From a virus: DNA of 13,814 nucleotides. Both the position numbers and the translations under genes were made by a program. The DNA lies in UHGV virus genome UHGV-1801311. One strand, written 5' to 3'. Under the pieces are notes generated by a model. That model worked only from the letters and a program-made list of their open reading frames with translations, was not told where the DNA came from and did no database searches. Shown in pieces: positions 1-13,814 of the stretch (positions are counted from its first letter, which is position 1; the number at the start of each line of letters is the position of its first letter).

Positions 1-28
1 GGCAGCGTCAGATGTGTATAAGAGACAG
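1..28 (+). other. Illumina Nextera read-1 transposase adapter remnant ending in the 19-bp Tn5 mosaic end (10-28, AGATGTGTATAAGAGACAG)
   Basis: Direct read: GGCAGCGTCAGATGTGTATAAGAGACAG matches the 3' 28 nt of the Nextera read-1 adapter (TCGTCGGCAGCGTCAGATGTGTATAAGAGACAG). It abuts phage coding sequence mid-gene. Confidence 0.9.
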
Positions 29-29
29 C

Positions 30-446
30 TTTATGGGGCGGCGAAAATTCGTCGCATCCCGTCAGGCGAGCCAGATGTTTCTGTGCTGGCTGGAAGAGGC
101 CATCGTTCGCCGCGTGGTGACGTTACCTTCAAAAGCGCGCTTCAGTTTTCAGGAAGCCCGCAGTGCCTGGGGGAACTGTGACTGGATAGGCTCCGGTCGT
201 ATGGCCATCGATGGTCTGAAAGAAGTTCAGGAAGCGGTGATGCTGATAGAAGCCGGACTGAGCACCTACGAGAAAGAGTGCGCAAAACGCGGCGACGACT
301 ATCAGGAAATTTTTGCCCAGCAGGTCCGTGAAACGATGGAGCGCCGTGCAGCCGGTCTTAAACCGCCCGCCTGGGCGGCTGCGGCATTTGAATCCGGGCT
401 GCGACAATCAACAGAGGAGGAGAAGAGTGACAGCAGAGCTGCGTAA
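30..446 (+). CDS. B: Portal protein gpB, C-terminal fragment (5' truncated by contig end/adapter)
   Basis: ORF frame 12..446 ends ...GLRQSTEEEKSDSRAA*, recognised as the lambda portal protein C-terminus. No start codon is expected because the gene is cut by the adapter. Stop TAA at 444-446. Confidence 0.8.
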   Translation, partial: FMGRRKFVASRQASQMFLCWLEEAIVRRVVTLPSKARFSFQEARSAWGNCDWIGSGRMAIDGLKEVQEAVMLIEAGLSTYEKECAKRGDDYQEIFAQQVRETMERRAAGLKPPAWAAAAFESGLRQSTEEEKSDSRAA

Positions 447-1746
447 TCTCCCGCATATTGCCAGCATGGCTTTTAATGAGCCGCTGATGCTTGAACCCGC
501 CTATGCGCGGGTTTTCTTTTGTGCGCTTGCAGGCCAGCTTGGGATCAGCCGCCTGACGGATGCAGTATCCGGCGACAGCCTGACTGCCGGAGAGGCACCC
601 GCGGCGCTGGCGTTATCCGGTGATGATGACGGACCACGACAGGCCCGCAGTTATCAGGTCATGAACGGCATCGCCGTGCTGCCGGTGTCCGGCACGCTGG
701 TCAGCCGGACGCGGGCGCTGCAGCCGTATTCGGGGATGACCGGTTACAACAGCATTATCGCCCGTCTGCAACAGGCTGCCAGCGACCCGATGGTGGACGG
801 CATTCTGCTCGATATGGACACGCCAGGCGGGATGGTGGCGGGGGCATTTGACTGCGCTGACATCATCGCCCGTGTGCGTGACATAAAACCGGTATGGGCG
901 CTGGCCAACGACATGAACTGCAGTGCAGGTCAGTTGCTTGCCAGTGCCGCCTCCCGGCGTCTGGTCACGCAGACCGCCCGGACAGGCTCCATCGGCGTCA
1001 TGATGGCTCACAGTAATTACGGCGCTGCACTGGAGAAACAGGGCGTGGAAATCACGCTGATTTACAGCGGCAGCCATAAGGTGGATGGCAACCCCTACAG
1101 CCATCTACCGGGTGATGTCCGGGAGACACTGCAGTCCCGGATGGATGCAACCCGCCGGATGTTTGCGCAGAAGGTGTCGGCATATACCGGCCTGTCCGTG
1201 CAGGCTGTGCTGGATACCGAGGCTGCAGTGTACAGCGGTCAGGAGGCCATTGATGCCGGACTGGCTGATGAACTTGTTAACAGTACCGATGCGATCACCG
1301 TCATGCGTGATGCACTGGATGCACGTAAATCCCGTCTCTCAGGAGGGCGAATGACCAAAGAGACTCAATCAACAACTGTTTCAGCCACTGCTTCGCAGGC
1401 TGACGTTACTGACGTGGTGCCAGCGACGGAGGGCGAAAACGCCAGCGCGGCGCAGCCGGACGTGAACGCGCAGATCACCGCTGCGGTTGCGGCAGAAAAC
1501 AGCCGCATTATGGGGATCCTCAACTGTGAGGAGGCTCACGGACGCGAAGAACAGGCACGCGTGCTGGCCGAAACCCCCGGTATGACCGTGGAAACGGCCC
1601 GCCGCATTCTGGCCGCAGCACCACAGAGTGCACAGGCGCGCAGTGACACTGCGCTGGATCGTCTGATGCAGGGGGCACCGGCACCGCTGGCTGCAGGTAA
1701 CCCGGCATCTGATGCCGTTAACGATTTGCTGAACACACCAGTGTAA
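427..1746 (+). CDS. C: Head maturation protease / minor capsid protein gpC (S49 / ClpP-like peptidase family), 439 aa
   Basis: Translation from GTG at 427 gives TAELRNLPHIASMAFNEPLMLEP..., the lambda gpC N-terminus. RBS GAGGAGGAG at about 413-421. Overlaps the end of B by 20 nt as in lambda. Length is exactly 1320 nt. The six-frame ORF from 313 is an upstream read-through into B. Confidence 0.9.
   Translation: MTAELRNLPHIASMAFNEPLMLEPAYARVFFCALAGQLGISRLTDAVSGDSLTAGEAPAALALSGDDDGPRQARSYQVMNGIAVLPVSGTLVSRTRALQPYSGMTGYNSIIARLQQAASDPMVDGILLDMDTPGGMVAGAFDCADIIARVRDIKPVWALANDMNCSAGQLLASAASRRLVTQTARTGSIGVMMAHSNYGAALEKQGVEITLIYSGSHKVDGNPYSHLPGDVRETLQSRMDATRRMFAQKVSAYTGLSVQAVLDTEAAVYSGQEAIDAGLADELVNSTDAITVMRDALDARKSRLSGGRMTKETQSTTVSATASQADVTDVVPATEGENASAAQPDVNAQITAAVAAENSRIMGILNCEEAHGREEQARVLAETPGMTVETARRILAAAPQSAQARSDTALDRLMQGAPAPLAAGNPASDAVNDLLNTPV
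1141..1746 (+). CDS. Nu3: Scaffolding protein Nu3, in-frame internal initiation within C (201 aa)
   Basis: ATG at 1141 (MDATRRMFAQKVSAYTG...) is in the C frame, 606 nt before the shared stop, matching the known lambda C/Nu3 nested arrangement. Confidence 0.75.
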   Translation: MDATRRMFAQKVSAYTGLSVQAVLDTEAAVYSGQEAIDAGLADELVNSTDAITVMRDALDARKSRLSGGRMTKETQSTTVSATASQADVTDVVPATEGENASAAQPDVNAQITAAVAAENSRIMGILNCEEAHGREEQARVLAETPGMTVETARRILAAAPQSAQARSDTALDRLMQGAPAPLAAGNPASDAVNDLLNTPV

Positions 1747-1755
1747 GGGATGTTT

Positions 1756-2088
1756 ATGACGAGCAAAGAAACCTTTACCCATTACCAGCCGCTGGGCAAC
1801 AGTGACCCGGCTCATACCGCAACCGCGCCCGGCGGATTGAGTGCGAAAGCGCCTGCAATGACCCCGCTGATGCTGGACACCTCCACCCGTAAGCTGGTTG
1901 CGTGGGATGGCACCACCGACGGTGCTGCCGTTGGCATTCTTGCGGTTGCTGCTGACCAGACCAGCACCACACTGACGTTCTACAAGTCCGGCACGTTCCG
2001 TTATGAGGATGTGCTCTGGCCGGAGGCTGCCAGCGACGAGACGAAAAAACGGACCGCGTTTGCCGGAACGGCAATCAGCATCGTTTAA
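1756..2088 (+). CDS. D: Head decoration protein gpD, 110 aa
   Basis: [27 protein letters not shown]...TAISIV is recognised as lambda gpD. Start chosen at the second ATG (1756) with AGGGA RBS 5 nt upstream; the ORF-track start at 1750 adds two residues. Confidence 0.9.
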
Positions 2089-2108
2089 CCTGACCCTTCA
2101 TCACTAAA

Positions 2109-2130
2109 GGCCGCCTGTGCGGCTTTTTTT
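2109..2130 (+). terminator. Weak terminator-like hairpin (GCCGC-CTGT-GCGGC) followed by a run of 7 T, between D and E
   Basis: Direct read: 5-bp GC stem at 2110-2114 / 2119-2123, then TTTTTTT at 2124-2130. The stem is short, so it may be an attenuator or mRNA-stability element rather than an efficient terminator. Confidence 0.35.
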
Positions 2131-2143
2131 ACGGGATTTTTTT

Positions 2144-3169
2144 ATGTCGATGTACACAACCGCCCAGCTGCTGGCGGCAAATGAGCAGAAATTTAAGTTT
2201 GATCCGCTGTTTCTGCGTCTCTTTTTCCGTGAGAGCTATCCCTTCACCACGGAGAAAGTCTATCTCTCACAAATTCCGGGACTGGTAAACATGGCGCTGT
2301 ACGTTTCGCCGATTGTTTCCGGTGAGGTTATCCGCTCCCGTGGCGGCTCCACCTCTGAATTTACGCCGGGATATGTCAAACCCAAGCATGAGGTGAATCC
2401 GCAGATGACCCTGCGTCGCCTGCCGGATGAAGATCCGCAGAATCTGGCGGACCCGGCTTACCGCCGCCGTCGCATCATCCTGCAGAACATGCGAGACGAA
2501 GAGCTGGCCATTGCTCAGGTCGAAGAGATGCAGGCCGTTTCTGCCGTGCTTAAGGGCAAATACACCATGACCGGTGAAGCCTTCGATCCGGTTGAGGTGG
2601 ATATGGGCCGCAGTGAAGCGAATAACATCACGCAGTCCGGCGGCACGGAGTGGAGCAAGCGTGACAAGTCCACGTATGACCCGACCGACGATATCGAAGC
2701 CTACGCGCTGAACGCCAGCGGTGTGGTGAATATCATCGTGTTTGATCCGAAAGGCTGGGCGCTGTTCCGTTCCTTCAAAGCCGTCAGGGAGAAGCTGGAT
2801 ACCCGTCGCGGCTCTCATTCCGAGCTGGAGACAGCGGTAAAAGACCTGGGCAAAGCGGTGTCCTATAAGGGAATGTATGGCGATGTGGCCATCGTCGTGT
2901 ATTCCGGACAGTACGTGGAAAACGGCGTCAAAAAGAACTTCCTGCCGGACAACACGATGGTGCTGGGGAACACTCAGGCACGCGGTCTGCGCACCTATGG
3001 CTGCATTCAGGATGCGGACGCACAGCGCGAAGGCATTAACGCCTCTGCCCGTTACCCGAAAAACTGGGTGACCACCGGCGATCCGGCGCGTGAGTTCACC
3101 ATGATTCAGTCAGCACCGCTGATGCTGCTGGCTGACCCTGATGAGTTCGTTTCCGTACAACTGGCGTAA
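2144..3169 (+). CDS. E: Major capsid protein gpE (HK97 fold), 341 aa
   Basis: MSMYTTAQLLAANEQKFKFDPLFLRLFFRESYPFT...EFVSVQLA is recognised as lambda gpE. Start at ATG 2144 (the ORF-track start at 2117 is an upstream in-frame extension). Length 1026 nt matches lambda E. Confidence 0.92.
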   Translation: MSMYTTAQLLAANEQKFKFDPLFLRLFFRESYPFTTEKVYLSQIPGLVNMALYVSPIVSGEVIRSRGGSTSEFTPGYVKPKHEVNPQMTLRRLPDEDPQNLADPAYRRRRIILQNMRDEELAIAQVEEMQAVSAVLKGKYTMTGEAFDPVEVDMGRSEANNITQSGGTEWSKRDKSTYDPTDDIEAYALNASGVVNIIVFDPKGWALFRSFKAVREKLDTRRGSHSELETAVKDLGKAVSYKGMYGDVAIVVYSGQYVENGVKKNFLPDNTMVLGNTQARGLRTYGCIQDADAQREGINASARYPKNWVTTGDPAREFTMIQSAPLMLLADPDEFVSVQLA

Positions 3170-3172
3170 TCG

Positions 3173-3198
3173 TGGCCCTTCGGGGCCATTTTCTCTCT
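3173..3198 (+). terminator. Stable hairpin with a UUCG tetraloop (TGGCCC-TTCG-GGGCCA) followed by a T-rich tract, just after the E stop codon
   Basis: Direct read: perfect 6-bp stem at 3173-3178 / 3183-3188 with TTCG loop, followed by ATTTTCTCTCT. Sits between the most highly expressed capsid gene and FI. Confidence 0.45.
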
Positions 3199-3210
3199 GT
3201 GGAGGAGTCC

Positions 3211-3606
3211 ATGACGAAAGATGAACTGATTGCCCGTCTTCAGGTGCTGGGTGAGCAACTGAACCGTGATGTCAGCCTGACGGGGACGAAAGAAGAACTG
3301 GCGCTCCGTGTGGCAGAGCTGGAAGAGGAGCTTGATGACACGGATGACGCAGCCGGTCAGGACACGTCTGTCAGCCCGGAAAATGCACTGACCGGACATG
3401 AAAATGAGGTGGTATCAGCACAGACGGATACCGTGACTGATACGGCTGCTCTGGTCACGGTTGTGGCACTGGTGACGCTGCATACTGATGCACTTCACGC
3501 CACGCGGGATGAGGCTGTGGCATTTGTGCTGCCGGGAACGGCGTTCCGTGTCTCTGCCGGTGTGGCAGCTGAAATGACAGAGCGCGGCCTGGCCAGAATG
3601 CAATAA
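3211..3606 (+). CDS. FI: DNA-packaging / head assembly protein gpFI, 131 aa
   Basis: MTKDELIARLQVLGEQLNRDVSLTGTKEELALRVAELEEEL... is recognised as lambda gpFI. RBS GGAGGAG at 3201-3207. The ORF-track start at 3172 is an upstream extension through the hairpin. Confidence 0.85.
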   Translation: MTKDELIARLQVLGEQLNRDVSLTGTKEELALRVAELEEELDDTDDAAGQDTSVSPENALTGHENEVVSAQTDTVTDTAALVTVVALVTLHTDALHATRDEAVAFVLPGTAFRVSAGVAAEMTERGLARMQ

Positions 3607-3617
3607 CGGGAGGCGCT

Positions 3618-3971
3618 GTGGCTGATTTCGATAACCTGTTCGATGCTGCCATTGCCCGCGCCGATGAAACGATACGCGGGTACATGGGAACGTCAGCCAC
3701 CATGACATCCGGTGAGCAGTCCGGCGCAGTAATACGTGGTGTTTTTGATGACCCTGAAAATATCAGCTATGCCGGACAGGGCGTGCGCGTTGAAGGCTCC
3801 AGCCCGTCCCTGTTTGTCCGGACTGATGATGTGCGGCAGCTGCGGCGCGGCGACACGCTGACCATCGGTGAGGAAAACTTCTGGATAGACCGGATTTCGC
3901 CGGATGATGGCGGAAGCTGTCATCTCTGGCTTGGGCGGGGCGTACCGCCTGCCGTTAACCGTCGCCGCTGA
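3618..3971 (+). CDS. FII: Head-tail connector / head completion protein gpFII, 117 aa
   Basis: GTG start at 3618 with GGGAGG RBS at 3607-3612. MADFDNLFDAAIARADETIRGYMG... is recognised as lambda gpFII; length matches. Confidence 0.88.
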   Translation: MADFDNLFDAAIARADETIRGYMGTSATMTSGEQSGAVIRGVFDDPENISYAGQGVRVEGSSPSLFVRTDDVRQLRRGDTLTIGEENFWIDRISPDDGGSCHLWLGRGVPPAVNRRR

Positions 3972-3982
3972 AAGGGGGATGT

Positions 3983-4561
3983 ATGGCCATAAAAGGTCTT
4001 GAGCAGGCCGTTGAAAACCTCAGCCGTATCAGCAGAACGGCGGTGCCCGGTGCCGCCGCAATGGCCATTAACCGCGTTGCTTCATCCGCGATATCGCAGT
4101 CGGCGTCACAGGTTGCCCGTGAGACAAAGGTACGCCGGAAACTGGTAAAGGAAAGGGCCAGGCTGAAAAGGGCCACGGTCAAAAATCCGCAGGCCAGAAT
4201 CAAAGTTAACCGGGGGGATTTGCCCGTAATAAAGCTGGGTAACGCGCGGATTGTCCTGTCCCGACGCAGGCGTCGTAAAAAGGGGCAGCGTTCATCCCTG
4301 AAAGGTGGCGGCAGCGTGCTTGTGGTGGGAAACCGTCGTATTCCCGGCGCGTTTATTCAGCAACTGAAAAATGGCCGGTGGCATGTCATGCAGCGTGTGG
4401 CCGGGAAAAACCGTTACCCCATTGATGTGGTGAAAATCCCGATGGCGGTGCCGCTGACCACGGCGTTTAAACAAAATATTGAGCGGATACGGCGTGAACG
4501 TCTTCCGAAAGAGCTGGGCTATGCGCTGCAGCATCAACTGAGGATGGTAATAAAGCGATGA
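3983..4561 (+). CDS. Z: Minor tail protein gpZ (tail completion), 192 aa
   Basis: MAIKGLEQAVENLSRISRTAVPGAAAMAINRV... is recognised as lambda gpZ. RBS AAAGGGGGA upstream of ATG 3983. Length matches. Confidence 0.9.
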   Translation: MAIKGLEQAVENLSRISRTAVPGAAAMAINRVASSAISQSASQVARETKVRRKLVKERARLKRATVKNPQARIKVNRGDLPVIKLGNARIVLSRRRRRKKGQRSSLKGGGSVLVVGNRRIPGAFIQQLKNGRWHVMQRVAGKNRYPIDVVKIPMAVPLTTAFKQNIERIRRERLPKELGYALQHQLRMVIKR

Positions 4562-4953
4562 AACATACTGAACTCCGTGCAGCCGTACTGGATGCACTGG
4601 AGAAGCATGACACCGGGGCGACGTTTTTTGATGGTCGCCCCGCTGTTTTTGATGAGGCGGATTTTCCGGCAGTTGCCGTTTATCTCACCGGCGCTGAATA
4701 CACGGGCGAAGAGCTGGACAGCGATACCTGGCAGGCGGAGCTGCATATCGAAGTTTTCCTGCCTGCTCAGGTGCCGGATTCAGAGCTGGATTCGTGGATG
4801 GAGTCCCGGATTTATCCGGTGATGAGCGATATCCCGGCACTGTCAGATTTGATCACCAGTATGGTGGCCAGTGGCTATGACTACCGGCGCGACGATGATG
4901 CGGGCCTGTGGAGTTCAGCCGATCTGACTTATGTCATTACCTATGAAATGTGA
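4558..4953 (+). CDS. U: Tail terminator protein gpU, 131 aa
   Basis: [33 protein letters not shown]... is recognised as lambda gpU. ATGA start/stop overlap with Z (translational coupling). Confidence 0.9.
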
Positions 4954-4960
4954 GGACGAT

Positions 4961-5701
4961 ATGCCAACACCAAATCCTCTGGCACCGGTGAAAGGGGCCG
5001 GGACCACACTGTGGGTTTATAAGGGGAGCGGTGACCCTTATGCGAATCCGCTTTCAGACGTTGACTGGTCGCGTCTGGCAAAAGTTAAAGACCTGACGCC
5101 CGGCGAACTGACCGCTGAGTCCTATGACGACAGCTATCTCGATGATGAAGATGCAGACTGGACTGCGACCGGGCAGGGGCAGAAATCTGCCGGAGATACC
5201 AGCTTCACGCTGGCGTGGATGCCCGGAGAGCAGGGGCAGCAGGCGCTGCTGGCGTGGTTTAATGAAGGTGATACCCGTGCCTATAAAATCCGCTTCCCGA
5301 ACGGCACGGTCGATGTGTTCCGCGGCTGGGTCAGCAGTATCGGTAAGGCGGTGACGGCGAAGGAAGTGATCACCCGCACGGTGAAAGTCACCAATGTGGG
5401 ACGTCCGTCGATGGCAGAAGATCGCAGCACGGTAACAGCGGCAACCGGCATGACCGTGACGCCTGCCAGCACCTCGGTGGTGAAAGGGCAGAGCACCACG
5501 CTGACCGTGGCCTTCCAGCCGGAGGGCGTAACCGACAAGAGCTTTCGTGCGGTGTCTGCGGATAAAACAAAAGCCACCGTGTCGGTCAGTGGTATGACCA
5601 TCACCGTGAAAGGTGTTGCTGCAGGCAAGGTCAACATTCCGGTCGTATCCGGTAATGGTGAACTTGCTGCGGTTGCAGAAATCAACGTCACCGCCAGTTA
5701 A
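4961..5701 (+). CDS. V: Major tail tube protein gpV with C-terminal Ig-like (Big_2-type) domain, 246 aa
   Basis: [37 protein letters not shown]... is recognised as lambda gpV. Start at ATG 4961 with GAGGA RBS; the ORF-track start at 4931 overlaps the end of U. C-terminal [25 protein letters not shown]... is an Ig-like repeat. Confidence 0.9.
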
Positions 5702-5716
5702 TCCGGAGAGTCAGCG

Positions 5717-6139
5717 ATGTTCCTGAAAACCGAATCATTTGAACATAACGGTGTGACCGTCACGCTTTCTGAACTGTCAGCCCTGCAGCGTATTGAGCAT
5801 CTCGCCCTGATGAAACGGCAGGCAGAACAGGCGGAGTCAGACAGCAACCGGAAGTTTACTGTGGAAGACGCCATCAGAACCGGCGCGTTTCTGGTGGCGA
5901 TGTCCCTGTGGCATAACCATCCGCAGAAGACAAAGCTGCCTTCCATGAATGAAGCCGTTAAACAGATTGAGCAGGAAGTGCTTACCACCTGGCCCACGGA
6001 GGCAATTTCTCATGCTGAAAACGTGGTGTACCGGCTGTCCGGTATGTATGAGTTTGTGGTGAATGATGCTCCTGAACAGACAGAGGACGCCGGGCCTGCA
6101 GAGCCTGTTTCTGCGGGAAAGTGTTCGACGGTGAGCTGA
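5717..6139 (+). CDS. G: Tail assembly chaperone gpG, 140 aa
   Basis: MFLKTESFEHNGVTVTLSELSALQRIEHLALMKRQAEQ...SAGKCSTVS* is recognised as lambda gpG. RBS GGAGAG upstream. Confidence 0.9.
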   Translation: MFLKTESFEHNGVTVTLSELSALQRIEHLALMKRQAEQAESDSNRKFTVEDAIRTGAFLVAMSLWHNHPQKTKLPSMNEAVKQIEQEVLTTWPTEAISHAENVVYRLSGMYEFVVNDAPEQTEDAGPAEPVSAGKCSTVS

Positions 6140-6555
6140 GTTTTGCCCTGAAACTGGCGCGCGAGATGGGGCGACCCGACTGGCGTGCCATGCTTGCCGG
6201 GATGTCATCCACGGAGTATGCCGACTGGCACCGCTTTTACAGTACCCATTATTTTCATGATGTTCTGCTGGATATGCACTTTTCCGGGCTGACGTACACC
6301 GTGCTCAGCCTGTTTTTCAGCGATCCGGATATGCATCCGCTGGATTTCAGTCTGCTGAACCGGCGCGAGGCTGACGAAGAGCCTGAAGATGATGTGCTGA
6401 TGCAGAAAGCGGCAGGGCTTGCCGGAGGTGTCCGCTTTGGCCCGGACGGGAATGAAGTTATCCCCGCTTCCCCGGATGTGGCGGACATGACGGAGGATGA
6501 CGTAATGCTGATGACAGTATCAGAAGGGATCGCAGGAGGAGTCCGGTATGGCTGA
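5717..6555 (+). CDS. GT: Tail assembly chaperone gpGT, made by -1 programmed ribosomal frameshift from G into the T frame at the slippery site 6115-6121
   Basis: The T frame (6121..6555) has no independent start or RBS. It overlaps the 3' end of G and follows the slippery heptamer G GGA AAG positioned exactly as in lambda. The T frame ends at TGA 6553-6555, overlapping the H start. Confidence 0.8.
6115..6121 (+). promoter_or_regulatory. Slippery heptanucleotide GGGAAAG for the G/GT -1 programmed ribosomal frameshift
   Basis: Direct read: in the G frame the codons are G GGA AAG (Gly-Lys, codons 134-135), 6 codons before the G stop. Shifting -1 enters the T ORF. Confidence 0.85.
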
Positions 6556-9109
6556 ACCGGTAGGCGATCTGGTCGTTGATTTAAGTCTGGATGCGGCCAG
6601 ATTTGACGAGCAGATGGCCAGAGTCAGGCGTCATTTTTCCGGTACGGAAACTGATGCGAAAAAAACAGCGGCAGTCGTTGAACAGTCGCTGAGCCGACAG
6701 GCGCTGGCTGCACAGAAAGCGGGGATTTCCGTCGGGCAGTATAAAGCCGCCATGCGTATGCTGCCTGCACAGTTCACCGACGTGGCCACGCAGCTTGCAG
6801 GCGGGCAAAGTCCGTGGCTGATCCTGCTGCAACAGGGTGGTCAGGTTAAGGACTCCTTCGGCGGGATGATCCCCATGTTCAGGGGGCTTGCCGGTGCGAT
6901 CACCCTGCCGATGGTGGGGGCCACCTCGCTGGCGGTGGCGACCGGTGCGCTGGCGTATGCCTGGTATCAGGGCAACTCAACCCTGTCCGATTTCAACAAA
7001 ACGCTGGTCCTTTCCGGCAATCAGGCGGGACTGACGGCAGATCGTATGCTGGTCCTGTCCAGAGCCGGGCAGGCGGCAGGGCTGACGTTTAACCAGACCA
7101 GCGAGTCACTGACGGCGCTGGTGAATGCCGGTGTGCGTGGTGGTGAGCAGTTTGAGGCGATCAGCCAGAGTGTGGCGCGTTTCTCCTCTGCATCCGGCGT
7201 GGAGGTGGACAAGGTCGCTGAAGCCTTCGGGAAGCTGACCACAGACCCGACGTCGGGGCTGACGGCGATGGCACGCCAGTTCCATAACGTGACGGCGGAG
7301 CAGATTGCGTATGTTGCTCAGTTGCAGCGTTCCGGCGATGAAGCCGGGGCATTGCAGGCGGCGAACGAGGCCGCAACGAAAGGGTTTGATGACCAGACCC
7401 GCCGCCTGAAAGAGAACATGGGCACGCTGGAGACCTGGGCAGACAGGACAGCGCGGGCATTCAAATCCATGTGGGATGCGGTGCTGGATATTGGTCGTCC
7501 TGATACCGCGCAGGAGATGCTGATTAAGGCAGAGGCTGCGTTTAAGAAAGCAGACGACATCTGGAATCTGCGCAAGGATGATTATTTTGTTAACGATGAA
7601 GCGCGGGCGCGTTACTGGGATGATCGTGAAAAGGCCCGTCTTGCGCTTGAAGCCGCCCGAAAGAAGGCTGAGCAGCAGACTCAACAGGACAAAAATGCGC
7701 AGCAGCAGAGCGATACCGAAGCGTCACGGCTGAAATATACCGAAGAGGCGCAGAAGGCTTACGAACGGCTGCAGACGCCGCTGGAGAAATATACCGCCCG
7801 TCAGGAAGAACTGAACAAGGCACTGAAAGACGGGAAAATCCTGCAGGCAGATTACAACACGCTGATGGCGGCGGCGAAAAAGGATTATGAAGCGACGCTG
7901 AAAAAGCCGAAACAGTCCGGCGTGAAGGTGTCTGCGGGCGATCGTCAGGAAGACAGTGCTCATGCTGCCCTGCTGACGCTTCAGGCAGAACTCCGGACGC
8001 TGGAGAAGCATGCCGGAGCAAATGAGAAAATCAGCCAGCAGCGCCGGGATTTGTGGAAGGCGGAGAGTCAGTTCGCGGTACTGGAGGAGGCGGCGCAACG
8101 TCGCCAGCTGTCTGCACAGGAGAAATCCCTGCTGGCGCATAAAGATGAGACGCTGGAGTACAAACGCCAGCTGGCTGCACTTGGCGACAAGGTTACGTAT
8201 CAGGAGCGCCTGAACGCGCTGGCGCAGCAGGCGGATAAATTCGCACAGCAGCAACGGGCAAAACGGGCCGCCATTGATGCGAAAAGCCGGGGGCTGACTG
8301 ACCGGCAGGCAGAACGGGAAGCCACGGAACAGCGCCTGAAGGAACAGTATGGCGATAATCCGCTGGCGCTGAATAACGTCATGTCAGAGCAGAAAAAGAC
8401 CTGGGCGGCTGAAGACCAGCTTCGCGGGAACTGGATGGCAGGCCTGAAGTCCGGCTGGAGTGAGTGGGAAGAGAGCGCCACGGACAGTATGTCGCAGGTT
8501 AAAAGTGCTGCCACGCAGACCTTTGATGGTATTGCGCAGAATATGGCGGCGATGCTGACCGGCAGTGAGCAGAACTGGCGCAGCTTCACCCGTTCCGTGC
8601 TGTCCATGATGACAGAAATTCTGCTTAAGCAGGCAATGGTGGGGATTGTCGGGAGTATCGGCAGCGCCATTGGCGGGGCTGTTGGTGGCGGCGCATCCGC
8701 GTCAGGCGGTACAGCCATTCAGGCCGCTGCGGCGAAATTCCATTTTGCAACCGGAGGATTTACGGGAACCGGCGGCAAATATGAGCCAGCGGGGATTGTT
8801 CACCGTGGTGAGTTTGTCTTCACGAAGGAGGCAACCAGCCGGATTGGCGTGGGGAATCTTTACCGGCTGATGCGCGGCTATGCCACCGGCGGTTATGTCG
8901 GTACACCGGGCAGCATGGCAGACAGCCGGTCGCAGGCGTCCGGGACGTTTGAGCAGAATAACCATGTGGTGATTAACAACGACGGCACGAACGGGCAGAT
9001 AGGTCCGGCTGCTCTGAAGGCGGTGTATGACATGGCCCGCAAGGGTGCCCGTGATGAAATTCAGACACAGATGCGTGATGGTGGCCTGTTCTCCGGAGGT
9101 GGACGATGA
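6548..9109 (+). CDS. H: Tail tape-measure protein gpH, 853 aa
   Basis: MAEPVGDLVVDLSLDAARFDEQMARVRRHF... is recognised as lambda gpH. Has a long Ala/Gln/Lys/Glu-rich helical middle and a Gly-rich C-terminal segment (GIVGSIGSAIGGAVGGGASASGG...). Length matches lambda H. Confidence 0.92.
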   Translation: MAEPVGDLVVDLSLDAARFDEQMARVRRHFSGTETDAKKTAAVVEQSLSRQALAAQKAGISVGQYKAAMRMLPAQFTDVATQLAGGQSPWLILLQQGGQVKDSFGGMIPMFRGLAGAITLPMVGATSLAVATGALAYAWYQGNSTLSDFNKTLVLSGNQAGLTADRMLVLSRAGQAAGLTFNQTSESLTALVNAGVRGGEQFEAISQSVARFSSASGVEVDKVAEAFGKLTTDPTSGLTAMARQFHNVTAEQIAYVAQLQRSGDEAGALQAANEAATKGFDDQTRRLKENMGTLETWADRTARAFKSMWDAVLDIGRPDTAQEMLIKAEAAFKKADDIWNLRKDDYFVNDEARARYWDDREKARLALEAARKKAEQQTQQDKNAQQQSDTEASRLKYTEEAQKAYERLQTPLEKYTARQEELNKALKDGKILQADYNTLMAAAKKDYEATLKKPKQSGVKVSAGDRQEDSAHAALLTLQAELRTLEKHAGANEKISQQRRDLWKAESQFAVLEEAAQRRQLSAQEKSLLAHKDETLEYKRQLAALGDKVTYQERLNALAQQADKFAQQQRAKRAAIDAKSRGLTDRQAEREATEQRLKEQYGDNPLALNNVMSEQKKTWAAEDQLRGNWMAGLKSGWSEWEESATDSMSQVKSAATQTFDGIAQNMAAMLTGSEQNWRSFTRSVLSMMTEILLKQAMVGIVGSIGSAIGGAVGGGASASGGTAIQAAAAKFHFATGGFTGTGGKYEPAGIVHRGEFVFTKEATSRIGVGNLYRLMRGYATGGYVGTPGSMADSRSQASGTFEQNNHVVINNDGTNGQIGPAALKAVYDMARKGARDEIQTQMRDGGLFSGGGR

Positions 9110-9435
9110 AGACCTTCCGCTGGAAAGTGAAACCCGGTATGGATGTGGCTTCGGTCCCTTCTGTAAGAAAGGTGCGCTTTGGTGATGGCTATTCTCAGCG
9201 AGCGCCTGCCGGGCTGAATGCCAACCTGAAAACGTACAGCGTGACGCTTTCTGTCCCCCGTGAGGAGGCCACGGCGCTGGAGTCGTTTCTGGCTGAGCAC
9301 GGGGGCTGGAAAGCCTTTCTGTGGACGCCGCCTTATGAGTGGCGGCAGATAAAGGTGACCTGCGCAAAATGGTCGTCGCGGGTCAGTATGCTGCGTGTTG
9401 AGTTCAGCGCAGAGTTTGAACAGGTGGTGAACTGA
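9106..9435 (+). CDS. M: Minor tail protein gpM (tail tip), 109 aa
   Basis: MKTFRWKVKPGMDVASVPSVRKVRFGDGYSQRAPAGLNANLKTYS... is recognised as lambda gpM. ATGA overlap with the H stop. Confidence 0.9.
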   Translation: MKTFRWKVKPGMDVASVPSVRKVRFGDGYSQRAPAGLNANLKTYSVTLSVPREEATALESFLAEHGGWKAFLWTPPYEWRQIKVTCAKWSSRVSMLRVEFSAEFEQVVN

Positions 9436-10133
9436 TGCAGGATATCCGGCAGGAAACACTGAATGAATGCACCCGTGCGGAGCAGTCGGCCAGCGTGGTG
9501 CTCTGGGAAATCGACCTGACAGAGGTCGGTGGAGAACGTTATTTTTTCTGTAATGAGCAGAACGAAAAAGGTGAGCCGGTCACCTGGCAGGGGCGACAGT
9601 ATCAGCCGTATCCCATTCAGGGGAGTGGTTTTGAACTGAATGGCAAAGGCACCAGTACGCGCCCCACGCTGACGGTTTCTAACCTGTACGGTATGGTCAC
9701 CGGGATGGCGGAAGATCTGCAGAGTCTGGTCGGTGGAACGGTGGTCCGGCGTAAGGTTTACGCCCGTTTTCTGGATGCGGTGAACTTCGTCAACGGAAAC
9801 AGAGACGCCGATTCGGAGCAGGAGGTGATCAGCCGCTGGCGCATTGAGCAGTGCAGCGAACTGAGCGCGGTGAGTGCCTCCTTTGTACTGTCCACGCCGA
9901 CGGAAACGGATGGCGCTGTTTTTCCGGGACGTATCATGCTGGCCAACACCTGCACCTGGACCTATCGCGGCGATGAGTGCGGTTATAGCGGTCCGGCGGT
10001 CGCGGATGAATATGACCAGCCGACGTCCGATATCACGAAGGATAAATGCAGCAAATGCCTGAGCGGTTGTAAGTTCCGCAATAACGTCGGCAACTTTGGC
10101 GGCTTCCTTTCCATTAACAAACTTTCGCAGTAA
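9435..10133 (+). CDS. L: Minor tail protein gpL (tail tip, Cys-rich C-terminus), 232 aa
   Basis: MQDIRQETLNECTRAEQSASVVLWEIDLTEVGGERYFFCNEQ... is recognised as lambda gpL. Stop TGA of M overlaps ATG 9435. C-terminal Cys cluster (CTWTYRGDECGY...CSKCLSGC). Confidence 0.9.
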   Translation: MQDIRQETLNECTRAEQSASVVLWEIDLTEVGGERYFFCNEQNEKGEPVTWQGRQYQPYPIQGSGFELNGKGTSTRPTLTVSNLYGMVTGMAEDLQSLVGGTVVRRKVYARFLDAVNFVNGNRDADSEQEVISRWRIEQCSELSAVSASFVLSTPTETDGAVFPGRIMLANTCTWTYRGDECGYSGPAVADEYDQPTSDITKDKCSKCLSGCKFRNNVGNFGGFLSINKLSQ

Positions 10134-10137
10134 TCCC

Positions 10138-10881
10138 ATGACAGAGACAGAATCAGCGATTCTGGCGCACGCCCGGCGATGTGCGCCAGCGGAGTCGTGC
10201 GGCTTCGTGGTGAGAACACCGGAGGGGGAAAGATATTTTCCCTGCGTGAATATCTCCGGTGAGCCGGAGGCGTATTTCCGGATGTCGCCGGAGGACTGGC
10301 TGCGGGCAGAGATGCAGGGTGAGATTGTGGCGCTGGTCCACAGCCACCCCGGTGGTCTGCCCTGGCTGAGTGAGGCTGACCGGCGGCTGCAGGTGCAGAG
10401 TGATTTGCCGTGGTGGCTGGTCTGCCGGGGGACGATTCATAAGTTCCGCTGTGTGCCGCATCTCACCGGGCGGCGCTTTGAGCACGGGGTGACGGACTGT
10501 TACACGCTGTTCCGGGATGCTTATCATCTGGCGGGGATTGAGATGCCGGATTTTCATCGCGGGGATGACTGGTGGCGTCACGGCCAGAATCTCTATCTGG
10601 ATAATCTGGAGGCCACAGGGCTGTATCAGGTGCCGTTGTCATCAGCACAACCGGGCGATGTGCTGCTGTGCTGTTTTGGTTCATCGGTGCCGAATCATGC
10701 CGCCATTTACTGTGGTGACGGTGAGCTGCTGCACCATATTCCTGAACAACTGAGCAAACGAGAGAGGTATACCGACAAATGGCAGCGACGCACACACTCC
10801 CTCTGGCGTCACCGGGCATGGCGCGCATCTGCCTTTACGGGGATTTACAACGATTTGGTCGCCGCATCGACCTTCGTGTGA
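10138..10881 (+). CDS. K: Tail tip assembly protein gpK, JAB/MPN metalloprotease-like plus NlpC/P60 domain. Extended N-terminus; the classical lambda start corresponds to ATG 10282.
   Basis: The region matching the 199-aa lambda K annotation begins MSPEDWLRAEMQGEIVALVHSHPGG at 10282. The same frame is open upstream to ATG 10138 (MTETESAILAHARRCAPAESCGFVVRTPEGERYFPC...), which supplies the Glu-containing N-terminal half of a JAB/MPN domain ahead of the HSHPGG...SEAD metal-binding motif. The 3' end overlaps I by 103 nt. Confidence 0.8.
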   Translation: MTETESAILAHARRCAPAESCGFVVRTPEGERYFPCVNISGEPEAYFRMSPEDWLRAEMQGEIVALVHSHPGGLPWLSEADRRLQVQSDLPWWLVCRGTIHKFRCVPHLTGRRFEHGVTDCYTLFRDAYHLAGIEMPDFHRGDDWWRHGQNLYLDNLEATGLYQVPLSSAQPGDVLLCCFGSSVPNHAAIYCGDGELLHHIPEQLSKRERYTDKWQRRTHSLWRHRAWRASAFTGIYNDLVAASTFV

Positions 10882-11450
10882 AAACGGGGGCTGAAGCCAT
10901 CCGGGCACTGGCCACACAGCTCCCGGCGTTTCGTCAGAAACTGAGCGACGGCTGGTATCAGGTACGGATTGCCGGGCGGGACGTCAGCACGTCCGGGTTA
11001 ACGGCGCAGTTACATGAGACTCTGCCTGATGGCGCTGTGATTCATATTGTTCCCAGAGTCGCCGGGGCCAAGTCAGGTGGCGTATTCCAGATTGTCCTGG
11101 GGGCTGCCGCCATTGCCGGATCATTCTTTACCGCCGGAGCCACCCTTGCAGCATGGGGGGCAGCCATTGGGGCCGGTGGTATGACCGGCATCCTGTTTTC
11201 TCTCGGTGCCAGTATGGTGCTCGGTGGTGTGGCGCAGATGCTGGCACCGAAAGCCAGAACTCCCCGTACACAGACAACGGATAACGGCAAACAGAACACC
11301 TATTTCTCCTCACTGGATAACATGGTTGCCCAGGGCAATGTTCTGCCGGTTCTGTACGGTGAAATGCGCGTGGGGTCACGCGTGGTTTCTCAGGAGATCA
11401 GCACGGCAGACGAAGGGGATGGTGGTCAGGTTGTGGTGATTGGTCGCTGA
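10779..11450 (+). CDS. I: Tail tip assembly protein gpI (ubiquitin-like N-terminal domain, Gly/Ala-rich hydrophobic C-terminal half), 223 aa
   Basis: MAATHTLPLASPGMARICLYGDLQRFGRRIDLRVKTGAEAIRAL... is recognised as lambda gpI. Overlaps K in a different frame exactly as in lambda. Confidence 0.9.
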   Translation: MAATHTLPLASPGMARICLYGDLQRFGRRIDLRVKTGAEAIRALATQLPAFRQKLSDGWYQVRIAGRDVSTSGLTAQLHETLPDGAVIHIVPRVAGAKSGGVFQIVLGAAAIAGSFFTAGATLAAWGAAIGAGGMTGILFSLGASMVLGGVAQMLAPKARTPRTQTTDNGKQNTYFSSLDNMVAQGNVLPVLYGEMRVGSRVVSQEISTADEGDGGQVVVIGR

Positions 11451-11468
11451 TGCAAAATGTTTTATGTG

Positions 11469-11497
11469 AAACCGCCTGCGGGCGGTTTTGTCGTTTA
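11469..11497 (+). terminator. Terminator-like hairpin (AAACCGCC-loop-GGCGGTTT) followed by a T-rich tract, between I and J
   Basis: Direct read: 8-bp stem at 11469-11476 / 11482-11489 with a 5-nt loop, then TTTTGTCGTTT. Lies in the 60-nt I-J intergenic gap upstream of the J RBS (GGAG at 11499-11502). Confidence 0.45.
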
Positions 11498-11510
11498 TGG
11501 AGCGTGAGGA

Positions 11511-12931
11511 ATGGGTAAAGGCAGCAGTAAGGGGCATACCCCGCGCGAAGCGAAGGACAACCTGAAGTCCACGCAGTTGCTGAGTGTGATCGATGCCATC
11601 AGCGAAGGGCCGGTTGAAGGTCCGGTGGATGGATTAAAAAGCGTGCTGCTGAACAGTACGCCGGTGCTGGACAGTGAGGGGAATACCAATATATCCGGCG
11701 TCACGGTGGTGTTCCGGGCCGGTGAGCAGGAGCAGACACCGCCGGAGGGATTTGAATCCTCCGGCTCCGAGACGGTGCTGGGTACGGAAGTGAAATACGA
11801 CACGCCGATCACCCGGACCATCACGTCGGCAAACATTGACCGACTGCGTTTTACCTTCGGCGTGCAGGCACTGGTGGAAACCACCTCAAAGGGGGACAGG
11901 AATCCGTCGGAAGTCCGCCTGCTGGTTCAGATCCAGCGTAATGGTGGCTGGGTGACGGAAAAAGACATCACCATTAAGGGCAAAACCACCTCGCAGTATC
12001 TGGCCTCGGTGGTGGTGGATAACCTGCCGCCGCGCCCGTTCAATATCCGGATGCGCAGGATGACGCCGGACAGCACCACAGACCAGCTGCAGAACAAAAC
12101 GCTCTGGTCGTCATACACCGAAATCATCGATGTGAAACAGTGCTACCCGAACACGGCACTGGTCGGCGTGCAGGTGGATTCGGAGCAGTTCGGCAGCCAG
12201 CAGGTGAGCCGTAATTATCATCTGCGCGGGCGCATTCTGCAGGTGCCGTCGAACTATAACCCGCAGACGCGGCAATACAGCGGTATCTGGGACGGAACGT
12301 TTAAACCGGCATACAGCAACAACATGGCCTGGTGTCTGTGGGATATGCTGACCCATCCGCGCTACGGCATGGGGAAACGTCTTGGTGCGGCGGATGTGGA
12401 TAAATGGGCGCTGTATGTCATCGGCCAGTACTGCGACCAGTCAGTGCCGGACGGCTTTGGCGGCACGGAGCCGCGCATCACCTGTAATGCGTACCTGACC
12501 ACACAGCGCAAGGCGTGGGATGTGCTCAGTGATTTCTGCTCGGCGATGCGCTGTATGCCGGTATGGAACGGGCAGACGCTGACGTTCGTGCAGGACCGAC
12601 CATCAGATAAGGTGTGGACCTATAACCGCAGTAATGTGGTGATGCCGGATGATGGCGCGCCGTTCCGCTACAGCTTCAGCGCCCTGAAGGACCGCCATAA
12701 TGCCGTTGAGGTGAACTGGATTGACCCGAATAACGGCTGGGAGACGGCGACAGAGCTTGTGGAGGACACGCAGGCCATTGCCCGTTACGGTCGTAACGTC
12801 ACGAAGATGGATGCCTTTGGCTGTACCAGCCGGGGGCAGGCACACCGCGCCGGGCTGTGGCTGATTAAAACGGAACTGCTGGAAACGCAGACCGTGGACT
12901 TCAGCGTGGGCGCAGAAGGGCTTCGCCATGT
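11511..12931 (+). CDS. J: Tail tip / central tail fibre protein gpJ, N-terminal ~473 codons only (3' truncated at a chimeric junction)
   Basis: MGKGSSKGHTPREAKDNLKSTQLLSVIDAISEGPVEGPVDGLKSVLLNSTPVLD... is recognised as the lambda gpJ N-terminus and stays J-like through ...TVDFSVGAEGLRH. After about 12931 the frame reads Gly/Arg/Ala/His-rich low-complexity sequence and the DNA is non-phage. Full-length J is 1132 aa. Confidence 0.85.
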
Positions 12932-13050
12932 GCACGCATGCGCTGGTGCTGGCGAAGGGCAAAGTGGTGGCGTTCGACGAGAAGGACGCGTTCGATTTCG
13001 ACGAGTTCTCGACGCTGTATCGCTCGACGGTTGGCATGGGGGTGGCGTAG
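12929..13050 (+). CDS. C-terminal fragment (about 40 codons) of an ABC-transporter ATP-binding protein, plausibly CcmA-like; 5' truncated at the junction
   Basis: Frame +2 reads ...CTHALVLAKGKVVAFDEKDAFDFDEFSTLYRSTVGMGVA* with stop TAG at 13048-13050 immediately before the CcmB-like ATG. This is a typical ABC-ATPase C-terminal tail. Assignment is by position and motif only. Confidence 0.4.
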
Positions 13051-13767
13051 ATGGCGGTCGAGCTAAAGAAGCCCTCGACCTTCCAGCAGTACAAGACGCT
13101 GCTGCGCAAGGACTTGGAGCAGGAGTTCCGCACGAAGGAGATGCTCACGTCCATGGGCATCTACGCGCTTTTGGTGATCATCGTGTACGGGGCGGCGCTG
13201 GCGCAGACCTCGCAGACCACCGACGTGCTGCAGATGAGCGGCGGCCTTCTGTGGGCGCTCATCGTGTTCACGTCGCTTTTGGGCCTGAACCGCTCGTTCG
13301 CGCACGAGAAGGAGCAGGGCTGCATGGAGGGCATCCTGCTGGTGCCGATGGACCGTTCGGTGGTGTTCCTGGCGAAATCGACGTCGAACCTGCTGTTCTT
13401 GCTGGTGGTGGAAGTGATCGCCGTGCCGCTGTTCTACTTCTTCTTCCTGACCACCACCACGCCGTCCGAGAGCTTCTGGCTGCTCGTGGTGCCGCTGCTC
13501 GTGGGCACCGTCGGCGTGGCGGGCATCGGCACGCTGCTGTCCACCATCACCATCAACACGCGCGGCAAGGACGTGATGTTGGCCGTGCTGTTCATCCCGC
13601 TGATCTTTCCGCTGCTGTACGCATGCGTGTCCGCGACGACGGCGGTCATCGTGGGCGCGGAAGGATATGCGGACATCATGCTGACGTCGTTGGCGCTTGC
13701 GGGCGGCTACGACGTGATCATGATCCTCGCATCGTGGGTTCTGTACGATTTCGTGATTAGCGCTTGA
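13051..13767 (+). CDS. ccmB: CcmB-like heme exporter permease (cytochrome c maturation ABC transporter membrane subunit), 238 aa
   Basis: About six hydrophobic segments and an FAHEKEQGCMEGILLVP motif resembling the conserved FxxExExG...E.L region of CcmB. Higher GC with G/C-rich third codon positions, unlike the phage region. ATG follows the upstream stop directly (operon-like). Product call is by motif recognition, not alignment. Confidence 0.6.
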   Translation: MAVELKKPSTFQQYKTLLRKDLEQEFRTKEMLTSMGIYALLVIIVYGAALAQTSQTTDVLQMSGGLLWALIVFTSLLGLNRSFAHEKEQGCMEGILLVPMDRSVVFLAKSTSNLLFLLVVEVIAVPLFYFFFLTTTTPSESFWLLVVPLLVGTVGVAGIGTLLSTITINTRGKDVMLAVLFIPLIFPLLYACVSATTAVIVGAEGYADIMLTSLALAGGYDVIMILASWVLYDFVISA

Positions 13768-13768
13768 T

Positions 13769-13796
13769 GTTCCGTCGGCCTGCCGGCCGACGGAAC
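13769..13796. repeat. Perfect 12-bp inverted repeat (GTTCCGTCGGCC-TGCC-GGCCGACGGAAC) immediately after the ccmB-like stop
   Basis: Direct read: the arms at 13769-13780 and 13785-13796 are exact reverse complements. No downstream T-tract is visible within the window (only 18 nt remain). Confidence 0.7.
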
Positions 13797-13814
13797 TGCT
13801 CGATGCTGCGAGGC

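Follow-up and report, generated by a model that had tools for sequence, protein, structure and literature searches.

Introduction

Inter-species translocations are reported to be the prevalent class of misassembly in benchmarks of metagenomes (metaMIC preprint). The repeats in this category, as used by metaQUAST and metaMIC, are typically conserved genes or mobile elements with a length of hundreds of bases. PCR template-switch chimeras form another class of false joins, usually described for templates that are close relatives and share long homology, for example 16S amplicons. Phage morons and specialised-transduction cargo, on the other hand, are biological insertions.

Here, we analyzed a window of 13,814 nucleotides, which is the whole stretch of UHGV virus genome UHGV-1801311. 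All features described below lie on its + strand. In this window, a lambda-like tail gene J is joined to ccmA and ccmB of Eggerthella lenta. In phage lambda, the C-terminal region of gpJ includes the receptor-binding C-terminus. The 474 N-terminal residues of J on the contig are 99% identical to lambdoid J at the DNA level and contain the FNIII-A_GpJ and Phage-tail_3 domains, whereas the ~690 C-terminal codons are missing. In System I cytochrome c maturation, CcmAB acts as a heme-handling ABC transporter. The ccmB gene of the contig is complete and encodes the E. lenta CcmB. In contrast, ccmA is cut to its last ~45 codons, and phage DNA replaces the rest of the operon.

The join shares several features with the inter-species translocations. 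Each flank of the contig is nearly 100% identical to its own parent, and the two meet in an exact repeat that is at least as long as the presumed smallest k. Coverage of the contig is low, and the junction occurs in one assembly only. Unlike the typical case, the repeat is a 22-mer, shared by chance, in unrelated genes and in different frames. As in PCR template-switch chimeras, the crossover falls in a short identity, and a Nextera adapter is present on the contig. The two templates, however, share 22 nt only. Bacterial DNA adjoins phage late genes on the contig, which recalls morons and transduction cargo. But this DNA comes from a phylum other than that of the phage host, interrupts an essential tail gene in the middle of a domain, and has no promoter/terminator unit of its own at the join. 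The join is a member of a known category, the inter-species assembly chimeras, and we regard the junction as an artefact of some kind almost with certainty.

A low-coverage contig with an adapter at its start

An exact look-up of the 749-aa ORF that spans the join returned a single record, and the whole window is one contig, ena:ERZ652080:NODE_1148_length_13814_cov_5.509412. Comparison with the ena:ERZ652080 record revealed that contig bases 1511–13814 are identical to those of the window. The mean k-mer coverage, as read from the contig name, is low (5.5). The NODE_..._cov_ form of the name is in SPAdes style. Judging from the two parents, the contig probably comes from a gut metagenome; a literature search for ERZ652080 gave no hit.

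The first 28 bases of the contig have no phage match, and phage homology starts at base 29. These bases (1–28), GGCAGCGTCAGATGTGTATAAGAGACAG, are located at the contig end and correspond to the last 28 nt of the Illumina Nextera (Tn5) read-1 adapter TCGTCGGCAGCGTCAGATGTGTATAAGAGACAG, a sequence that 1,955 papers, PMC4248319 among them, mention along with 'Nextera'. The 19-nt Tn5 mosaic end occurs once in the window, at 10–28, where none would be expected by chance. The segment is thus an untrimmed adapter remnant. An adapter at the contig start indicates that the reads were assembled without proper trimming, and its Nextera origin indicates a tagmentation-based library. We also considered a join mediated by the adapter. 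This was rejected, since the mosaic end is found only at 10–28 and not at the J/ccmA join.

The left part is a lambdoid structural module with a truncated gene J

Across bases 29–12933, the contig aligns as a single collinear block with lambda-like E. coli phages; identity is 98.1% for Escherichia phage Chlobot, and 97.9% for lambda, HK630 and others. The part found in phages only (29–12911) is a structural module that begins within the portal gene, of which it has the 3' part, and extends to codon 467 of J. On the basis of the Chlobot annotation and Pfam families, the gene order is portal 3' end, C/Nu3, D, E, FI, FII, Z, U, V, G, T, H, M, L, K, I and J.

The tail-tip/host-specificity gene J occupies 11511–12933 with its 5' 474 codons, as supported by its translation, Pfam matches and identity to the Chlobot J. 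The J segment is 99.4% identical to Chlobot J up to 12933. Residues 86–207 match FNIII-A_GpJ (Pfam, 2.9e-42), and residues 330–472 match Phage-tail_3 (Pfam, 2.2e-36). An earlier note, made from the letters of this DNA, had read the frame as gpJ through ...DFSVGAEGLRH, and the matches of residues 1–473 to these two domains agree with this reading.

J retains 474 of 1160 codons, taking the full length from phage Chlobot, so that ~690 codons are gone. The loss of about 660 codons put forward earlier comes to ~690 by the length of Chlobot J. We found no full-length J with its C-terminal half on the contig, as the remainder of the frame is out-of-frame E. lenta DNA. Because the C-terminal region, including the receptor-binding C-terminus, is missing, the assembled ORF is not a functional J.

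Downstream of ...DFSVGAEGLRH, the Gly/Arg/Ala/His-rich run without a stop continues, as had been described, to the stop codon at 13758–13760. The result is a spurious fusion ORF of 749 aa (11511–13760), which appears in the ORF list and as MGnify MGYP000369483080. It consists of the J N-terminus followed by an out-of-frame read-through of ccmA and ccmB.

The right part derives from Eggerthella lenta ccmA and ccmB

The bacterial source of the right part had been left to a separate search, which identified the chromosome of Eggerthella lenta (Actinomycetota) at 100%. Positions 12912–13814 are 100% identical to a 2.6-Mb E. lenta chromosome contig (L084) and 98.7% identical to CP001726, the genome of the type strain E. 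lenta DSM 2243. Gordonibacter and uncultured Eggerthellaceae gave the best matches in a scan of species-representative genomes, in which E. lenta was not listed. We rejected them as the source, since their DNA identity reaches only 86–93%, compared with 98.7–100% for E. lenta. Among 50,697 phage records, no match to the right part (12934–13814) was found.

The right part contains the last ~45 codons of ccmA, the whole ccmB and 47 nt downstream. Beyond the stretch common to both parents, positions 12934–13050 comprise the final 38 codons and the TAG of the ccmA-like ABC ATPase gene and are 100% identical to L084. In a frame other than that of J, positions 12931–13050 translate as ...CTHALVLAKGKVVAFDEKDAFDFDEFSTLYRSTVGMGVA. 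The ATPase tail, ...QKGFAMCTHALVLAKGKVVAFDEKDAFDFDEFSTLYRSTVGMGVA, ends at the TAG at 13048–13050, where the earlier note had placed its end, and is identical to the C-terminus of a 241-aa E. lenta ABC ATPase. The parent ccmA gene matches PF00005 ABC_tran. On the contig, only residues ~197–241 of the ATPase remain, without Walker A (GPNGAGKT), the signature motif, Walker B (VVFLDE) or the H-loop histidine. The proposed loss of the N-terminal domain is thus borne out, with all catalytic motifs located upstream of the join. With ~690 codons lost from J and all catalytic motifs lost from the ATPase, neither gene is functional at the join, in agreement with the initial reading.

The ccmB gene (13051–13767) is complete and encodes a heme exporter permease of 238 aa. 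The protein matches Pfam PF03379 (CcmB) with 97.3 bits (cut-off 24.9; 1.1e-27), while its score against the stricter NCBIfam equivalog TIGR01190 is 53.3, below the cut-off of 156.2. Its sequence is that of E. lenta ACV56534.1, among others, and at least 1000 contigs encode it. In NCBI, this same protein bears the name 'heme ABC transporter permease CcmB [Eggerthella lenta]'. The PF03379 score and the identity to E. lenta CcmB show that the labels 'ccmA/ccmB-like' and CcmB-like permease had been chosen correctly. The last 47 nt (13768–13814) are E. lenta intergenic DNA 3' of ccmB, and the 100% match to L084 reaches the contig end at 13814.

In the parent neighbourhood, multihaem cytochrome genes are followed by ccmE-ccmF-ccmA-ccmB-ccmC in 10/10 of the places listed. 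An intact CcmA next to ccmB, as in the parent genomes, is not found on the contig, where ccmA residues 1–196 are absent.

A visible shift of base composition at the join had also been claimed. The shift is clear at the third codon position, where GC3 is 0.60–0.74 in the phage genes and 0.87–0.92 in ccmA/ccmB. In bulk GC it is marginal: overall GC changes from 0.58 to 0.62 across the join, just above the highest 880-nt window of the phage part (0.616).

The two parents share an exact 22-mer at the join

The breakpoint separates DNA of two genomes, with matches to lambdoid coliphages on the left (98–99%) and to E. lenta on the right (98.7–100%). The match to phage runs as far as 12933, and that to E. 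lenta starts from 12912. The overlap (12912–12933) is an exact 22-mer, GCAGAAGGGCTTCGCCATGTGC, present in both parents. A three-way alignment of the contig with its parents defines this 22-mer as the crossover interval and reveals that identity breaks off immediately on either side of it. The junction is therefore not 'abrupt', as it had been called; the breakpoint lies somewhere inside the 22 bases common to both parents. Past the 22-mer, J continues in the phage with CGGGCGATGT..., while the ccmA sequence upstream of it in E. lenta reads ...CATGACTT.

J and ccmA use different frames of the 22-mer, which gives AEGLRHV in the former and QKGFAMC in the latter. Comparing 17 kb of phage with 16.7 kb of E. 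lenta, we found no other common word of 15 nt or more, and the next longest has 14 nt. In this comparison, the 22-mer yields two common 21-mers, one common 22-mer and no common 23-mer. The expected number of shared 22-mers is 0.02–0.05 for this genome pair, and ~5 for a 48.5-kb phage against a 1 Gb metagenome. With such an expectation of ~5, coincidences of this kind are available in any complex sample. Since the frames differ and ~5 are expected per 1 Gb metagenome, chance identity is an adequate explanation and common ancestry is not needed. We considered shared ancestry or horizontal transfer of the 22-mer as well, and discarded both in view of the different frames, the sharp ends of identity and a length within the chance expectation for a metagenome. 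The 22-mer is a chance identity and not homology.

In their own genomes, both flanks of the 22-mer are native. It is present on at least 120 lambdoid contigs of IMG/VR, with phage sequence on both flanks in 80/80 of those read. On the bacterial side, it occurs in 10/10 E. lenta loci, in three Gordonibacter/uncultured Eggerthellaceae loci and in one Paraeggerthella locus. All six loci that were aligned (four E. lenta, two Gordonibacter-like) have bacterial flanks on both sides. Some lambdoid J alleles, including that of lambda, share only 20 nt, and their matches end at 12931 instead of 12933. We also notice an IMG/VR contig (L121) whose length is 13,814 nt as well; it is a separate, ordinary lambdoid contig whose J runs on beyond the 22-mer.

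The junction was found on a single contig

Elsewhere, both parents occur commonly and in intact form. The 749-aa fusion ORF, in contrast, is known from a single contig, and clustering of ~15 billion proteins at 90% identity leaves it as the only member of its cluster. No JGI metagenome contig contains the words of 38 and 28 nt that span the junction. In IMG/VR, neither the junction-spanning 38-mer nor the reciprocal junction is present. The J segment is matched in 4,364 of 5,426 complete E. coli genomes and ends at 12933 in every match listed. None of the 4,364 goes on into E. lenta DNA, and no genome covers at least 80% of a query reaching into the bacterial part. The same junction in unrelated assemblies had been named earlier as evidence that would speak against a chimera, and our searches of protein clusters, JGI, IMG/VR and E. 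coli genomes did not find it.

Explanations of the join

Because the join sits exactly in the 22-nt identity, it points to an artefact guided by homology, either a k-mer misjoin or PCR template switching. We consider an inter-genome misassembly through a common k=21 node of the de Bruijn graph, rather than a molecule from a cell, to be the likely explanation. SPAdes and metaSPAdes use k of 21, 33 and 55 by default, with 21 as the smallest. In the multi-k scheme of SPAdes, contigs of the k=21 round are fed to later rounds, and a false path may persist. An identity of 22 nt is just sufficient to merge two paths at k=21, through two shared 21-mers, and does so at no larger k. Assuming k=21, as the SPAdes-style name and these defaults suggest, the J path and the E. 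lenta ccmA path would meet at one node (two consecutive 21-mers). At ~5.5x coverage, the true continuations, namely J downstream and ccmA upstream, were probably broken or clipped, as tips or gaps. From J, the assembler may then have proceeded into ccmA, leaving a chimeric path that would persist to the final contig. Since the final k of SPAdes (55 by default) exceeds 22, the join would need to be inherited from the k=21 round. We infer that the join originated in the graph and not in a chimeric read, and presumably reads do not support it across the breakpoint.

The alternative within the artefacts is an in vitro chimera at the read level. Tagmentation libraries are PCR-amplified. During amplification of such a Nextera library, an incomplete J fragment ending in the 22 nt could prime on ccmA, and the chimeric read or reads would then be assembled faithfully. 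The adapter at 1–28 fits this scheme, as it marks a tagmentation library. Template switching also puts the crossover inside the shared stretch, as seen, and at 5.5x one or two chimeric fragments could be enough to connect two contigs. What it leaves unexplained is why 22 nt is the exact minimum for an edge in a k=21 graph. Moreover, PCR chimeras of two low-abundance templates are rare in a complex metagenome and are normally outvoted by correct reads. The balance depends on the phage allele. If the phage in the sample carried the 20-nt allele, the k=21 graph would not link the two genomes and a read-level chimera would be needed; template switching works with 20 nt too and would become the better explanation. 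Overall, we regard template switching as a rather unlikely origin and the lesser rival to the graph misjoin, although it is equally artefactual. Random ligation, or a blunt-end chimera of unrelated fragments formed in library construction, would likewise give two dead genes and a unique junction, and nothing speaks for it specifically. Such joins carry zero to few bases of microhomology, and 22 nt by chance would occur at ~4^-22 per join. To our knowledge, tagmentation libraries have no step in which fragments are ligated to each other. In view of the 22-nt overlap, random ligation is effectively excluded. An assembly or ligation chimera had been proposed for this join. The artefact holds, given the E. 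coli phage and E. lenta parents and a junction found on one 5.5x contig, whereas random ligation does not, given the 22-nt overlap.

A real recombinant would have formed in vivo through the 22-nt microhomology between a lambdoid prophage and E. lenta DNA, either taken up by an E. coli lysogen or meeting phage DNA in E. lenta, and would be a defective prophage with ccmB. Recombination at identities of ~20 nt exists in E. coli, and ccmB is intact on the contig. Against this, the donor is of another phylum than the host of the phage, and the join destroys both genes. The bacterial side matches present-day E. lenta at 100% and shows native GC3 and no amelioration, and the contig combines low coverage with an adapter artefact. 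Furthermore, the junction is absent from the 5,426 complete E. coli genomes, the examined E. lenta loci, IMG/VR, the JGI metagenomes and the 15-billion-protein collection. Cargo beside J does not recur in related phages or prophages among 50,697 phage records and the 5,426 complete E. coli genomes. We therefore consider a recombinant very improbable. If it were true, it would be a case of cross-phylum illegitimate recombination caught in a metagenome. The unique junction, the destruction of both genes and a donor from another phylum likewise support the earlier view that a biological insertion, as a moron or cargo, is unlikely.

Implications

The false join has already reached public data. The spurious 749-aa protein is public as MGYP000369483080 and is apparently flagged as full length (tag 'CR=1 FL=1'). 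Such a contig could suggest, wrongly, that a phage carries a cytochrome c maturation gene or that a coliphage is linked to Eggerthella as its host. Many lambdoid J genes, 10/10 E. lenta ccmA loci and a few related Eggerthellaceae carry the conserved 22-mer, so that other gut assemblies made at k=21 from low coverage could show the same false join. Chimeras of this kind can be tested for quickly by comparison with references, asking whether the parents overlap by ~k bases at the breakpoint.

Each half of the contig is an ordinary member of a known family, a lambdoid J on one side and the E. lenta System I ccmA/ccmB on the other, and there is no biological novelty in it. The biological significance of the join is nil, and its practical significance is modest, as a warning of database contamination.

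Additional artefact and catalogue record of the chimeric contig

At the start of the contig, an untrimmed Illumina Nextera read-1 adapter of 28 nt, GGCAGCGTCAGATGTGTATAAGAGACAG, occupies window positions 1–28 and includes the 19-nt Tn5 mosaic end; the first phage base is at position 29. This adapter remnant is therefore a second artefact on the chimeric contig.

The chimeric open reading frame that reads through the junction (window 11511–13760) corresponds to the MGnify protein MGYP000369483080, which forms a singleton cluster. Its source tag ‘CR=1 FL=1’ apparently denotes full length. We conclude that MGYP000369483080 is a spurious record in public protein catalogues.

Features of the phage part and of the compared loci

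In the phage part, we notice a slippery heptamer, GGGAAAG (window 6115–6121), near the end of an open reading frame at 5717–6139, which overlaps the next one at 6121–6555. This G/T overlap is presumably the site of a programmed -1 frameshift making gpGT, as in lambda. The count of GGGAAAG in the window is not above chance (2 found versus 1.7 expected), and the heptamer at the G/T overlap is an ordinary lambdoid feature.

Among the IMG/VR contigs carrying the 22-mer of the join, L121 (IMGVR_UViG_2740892423_000026) is also exactly 13,814 nt long. It is 97% identical to the window up to position 12933, beyond which it stays J. L121 is a separate, normal lambdoid contig, and the matching length is a coincidence.

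In one E. lenta genome (L088), the ccm cluster is preceded by a nitrite-reductase-like gene for a multihaem cytochrome (Cytochrom_C552) that is interrupted by a Transposase_mut-family insertion sequence at 1468–2640; this insertion has no bearing on the J/ccmA junction.

Conservation of the shared 22-mer

Conservation of the 22-mer GCAGAAGGGCTTCGCCATGTGC (window 12912–12933) was assessed in the window and in the Eggerthellaceae ccm loci and lambdoid contigs L001–L003, L040, L082–L091 and L093–L172. The word is kept in many lambdoid J genes, and also in the E. lenta, Gordonibacter and Paraeggerthella ccmA genes. Lambda-type J alleles have just 20 nt in common with it (…CATGTA…). Since the 22-mer is kept in both lineages, the J/ccmA false join could appear again in other gut assemblies that use k=21.
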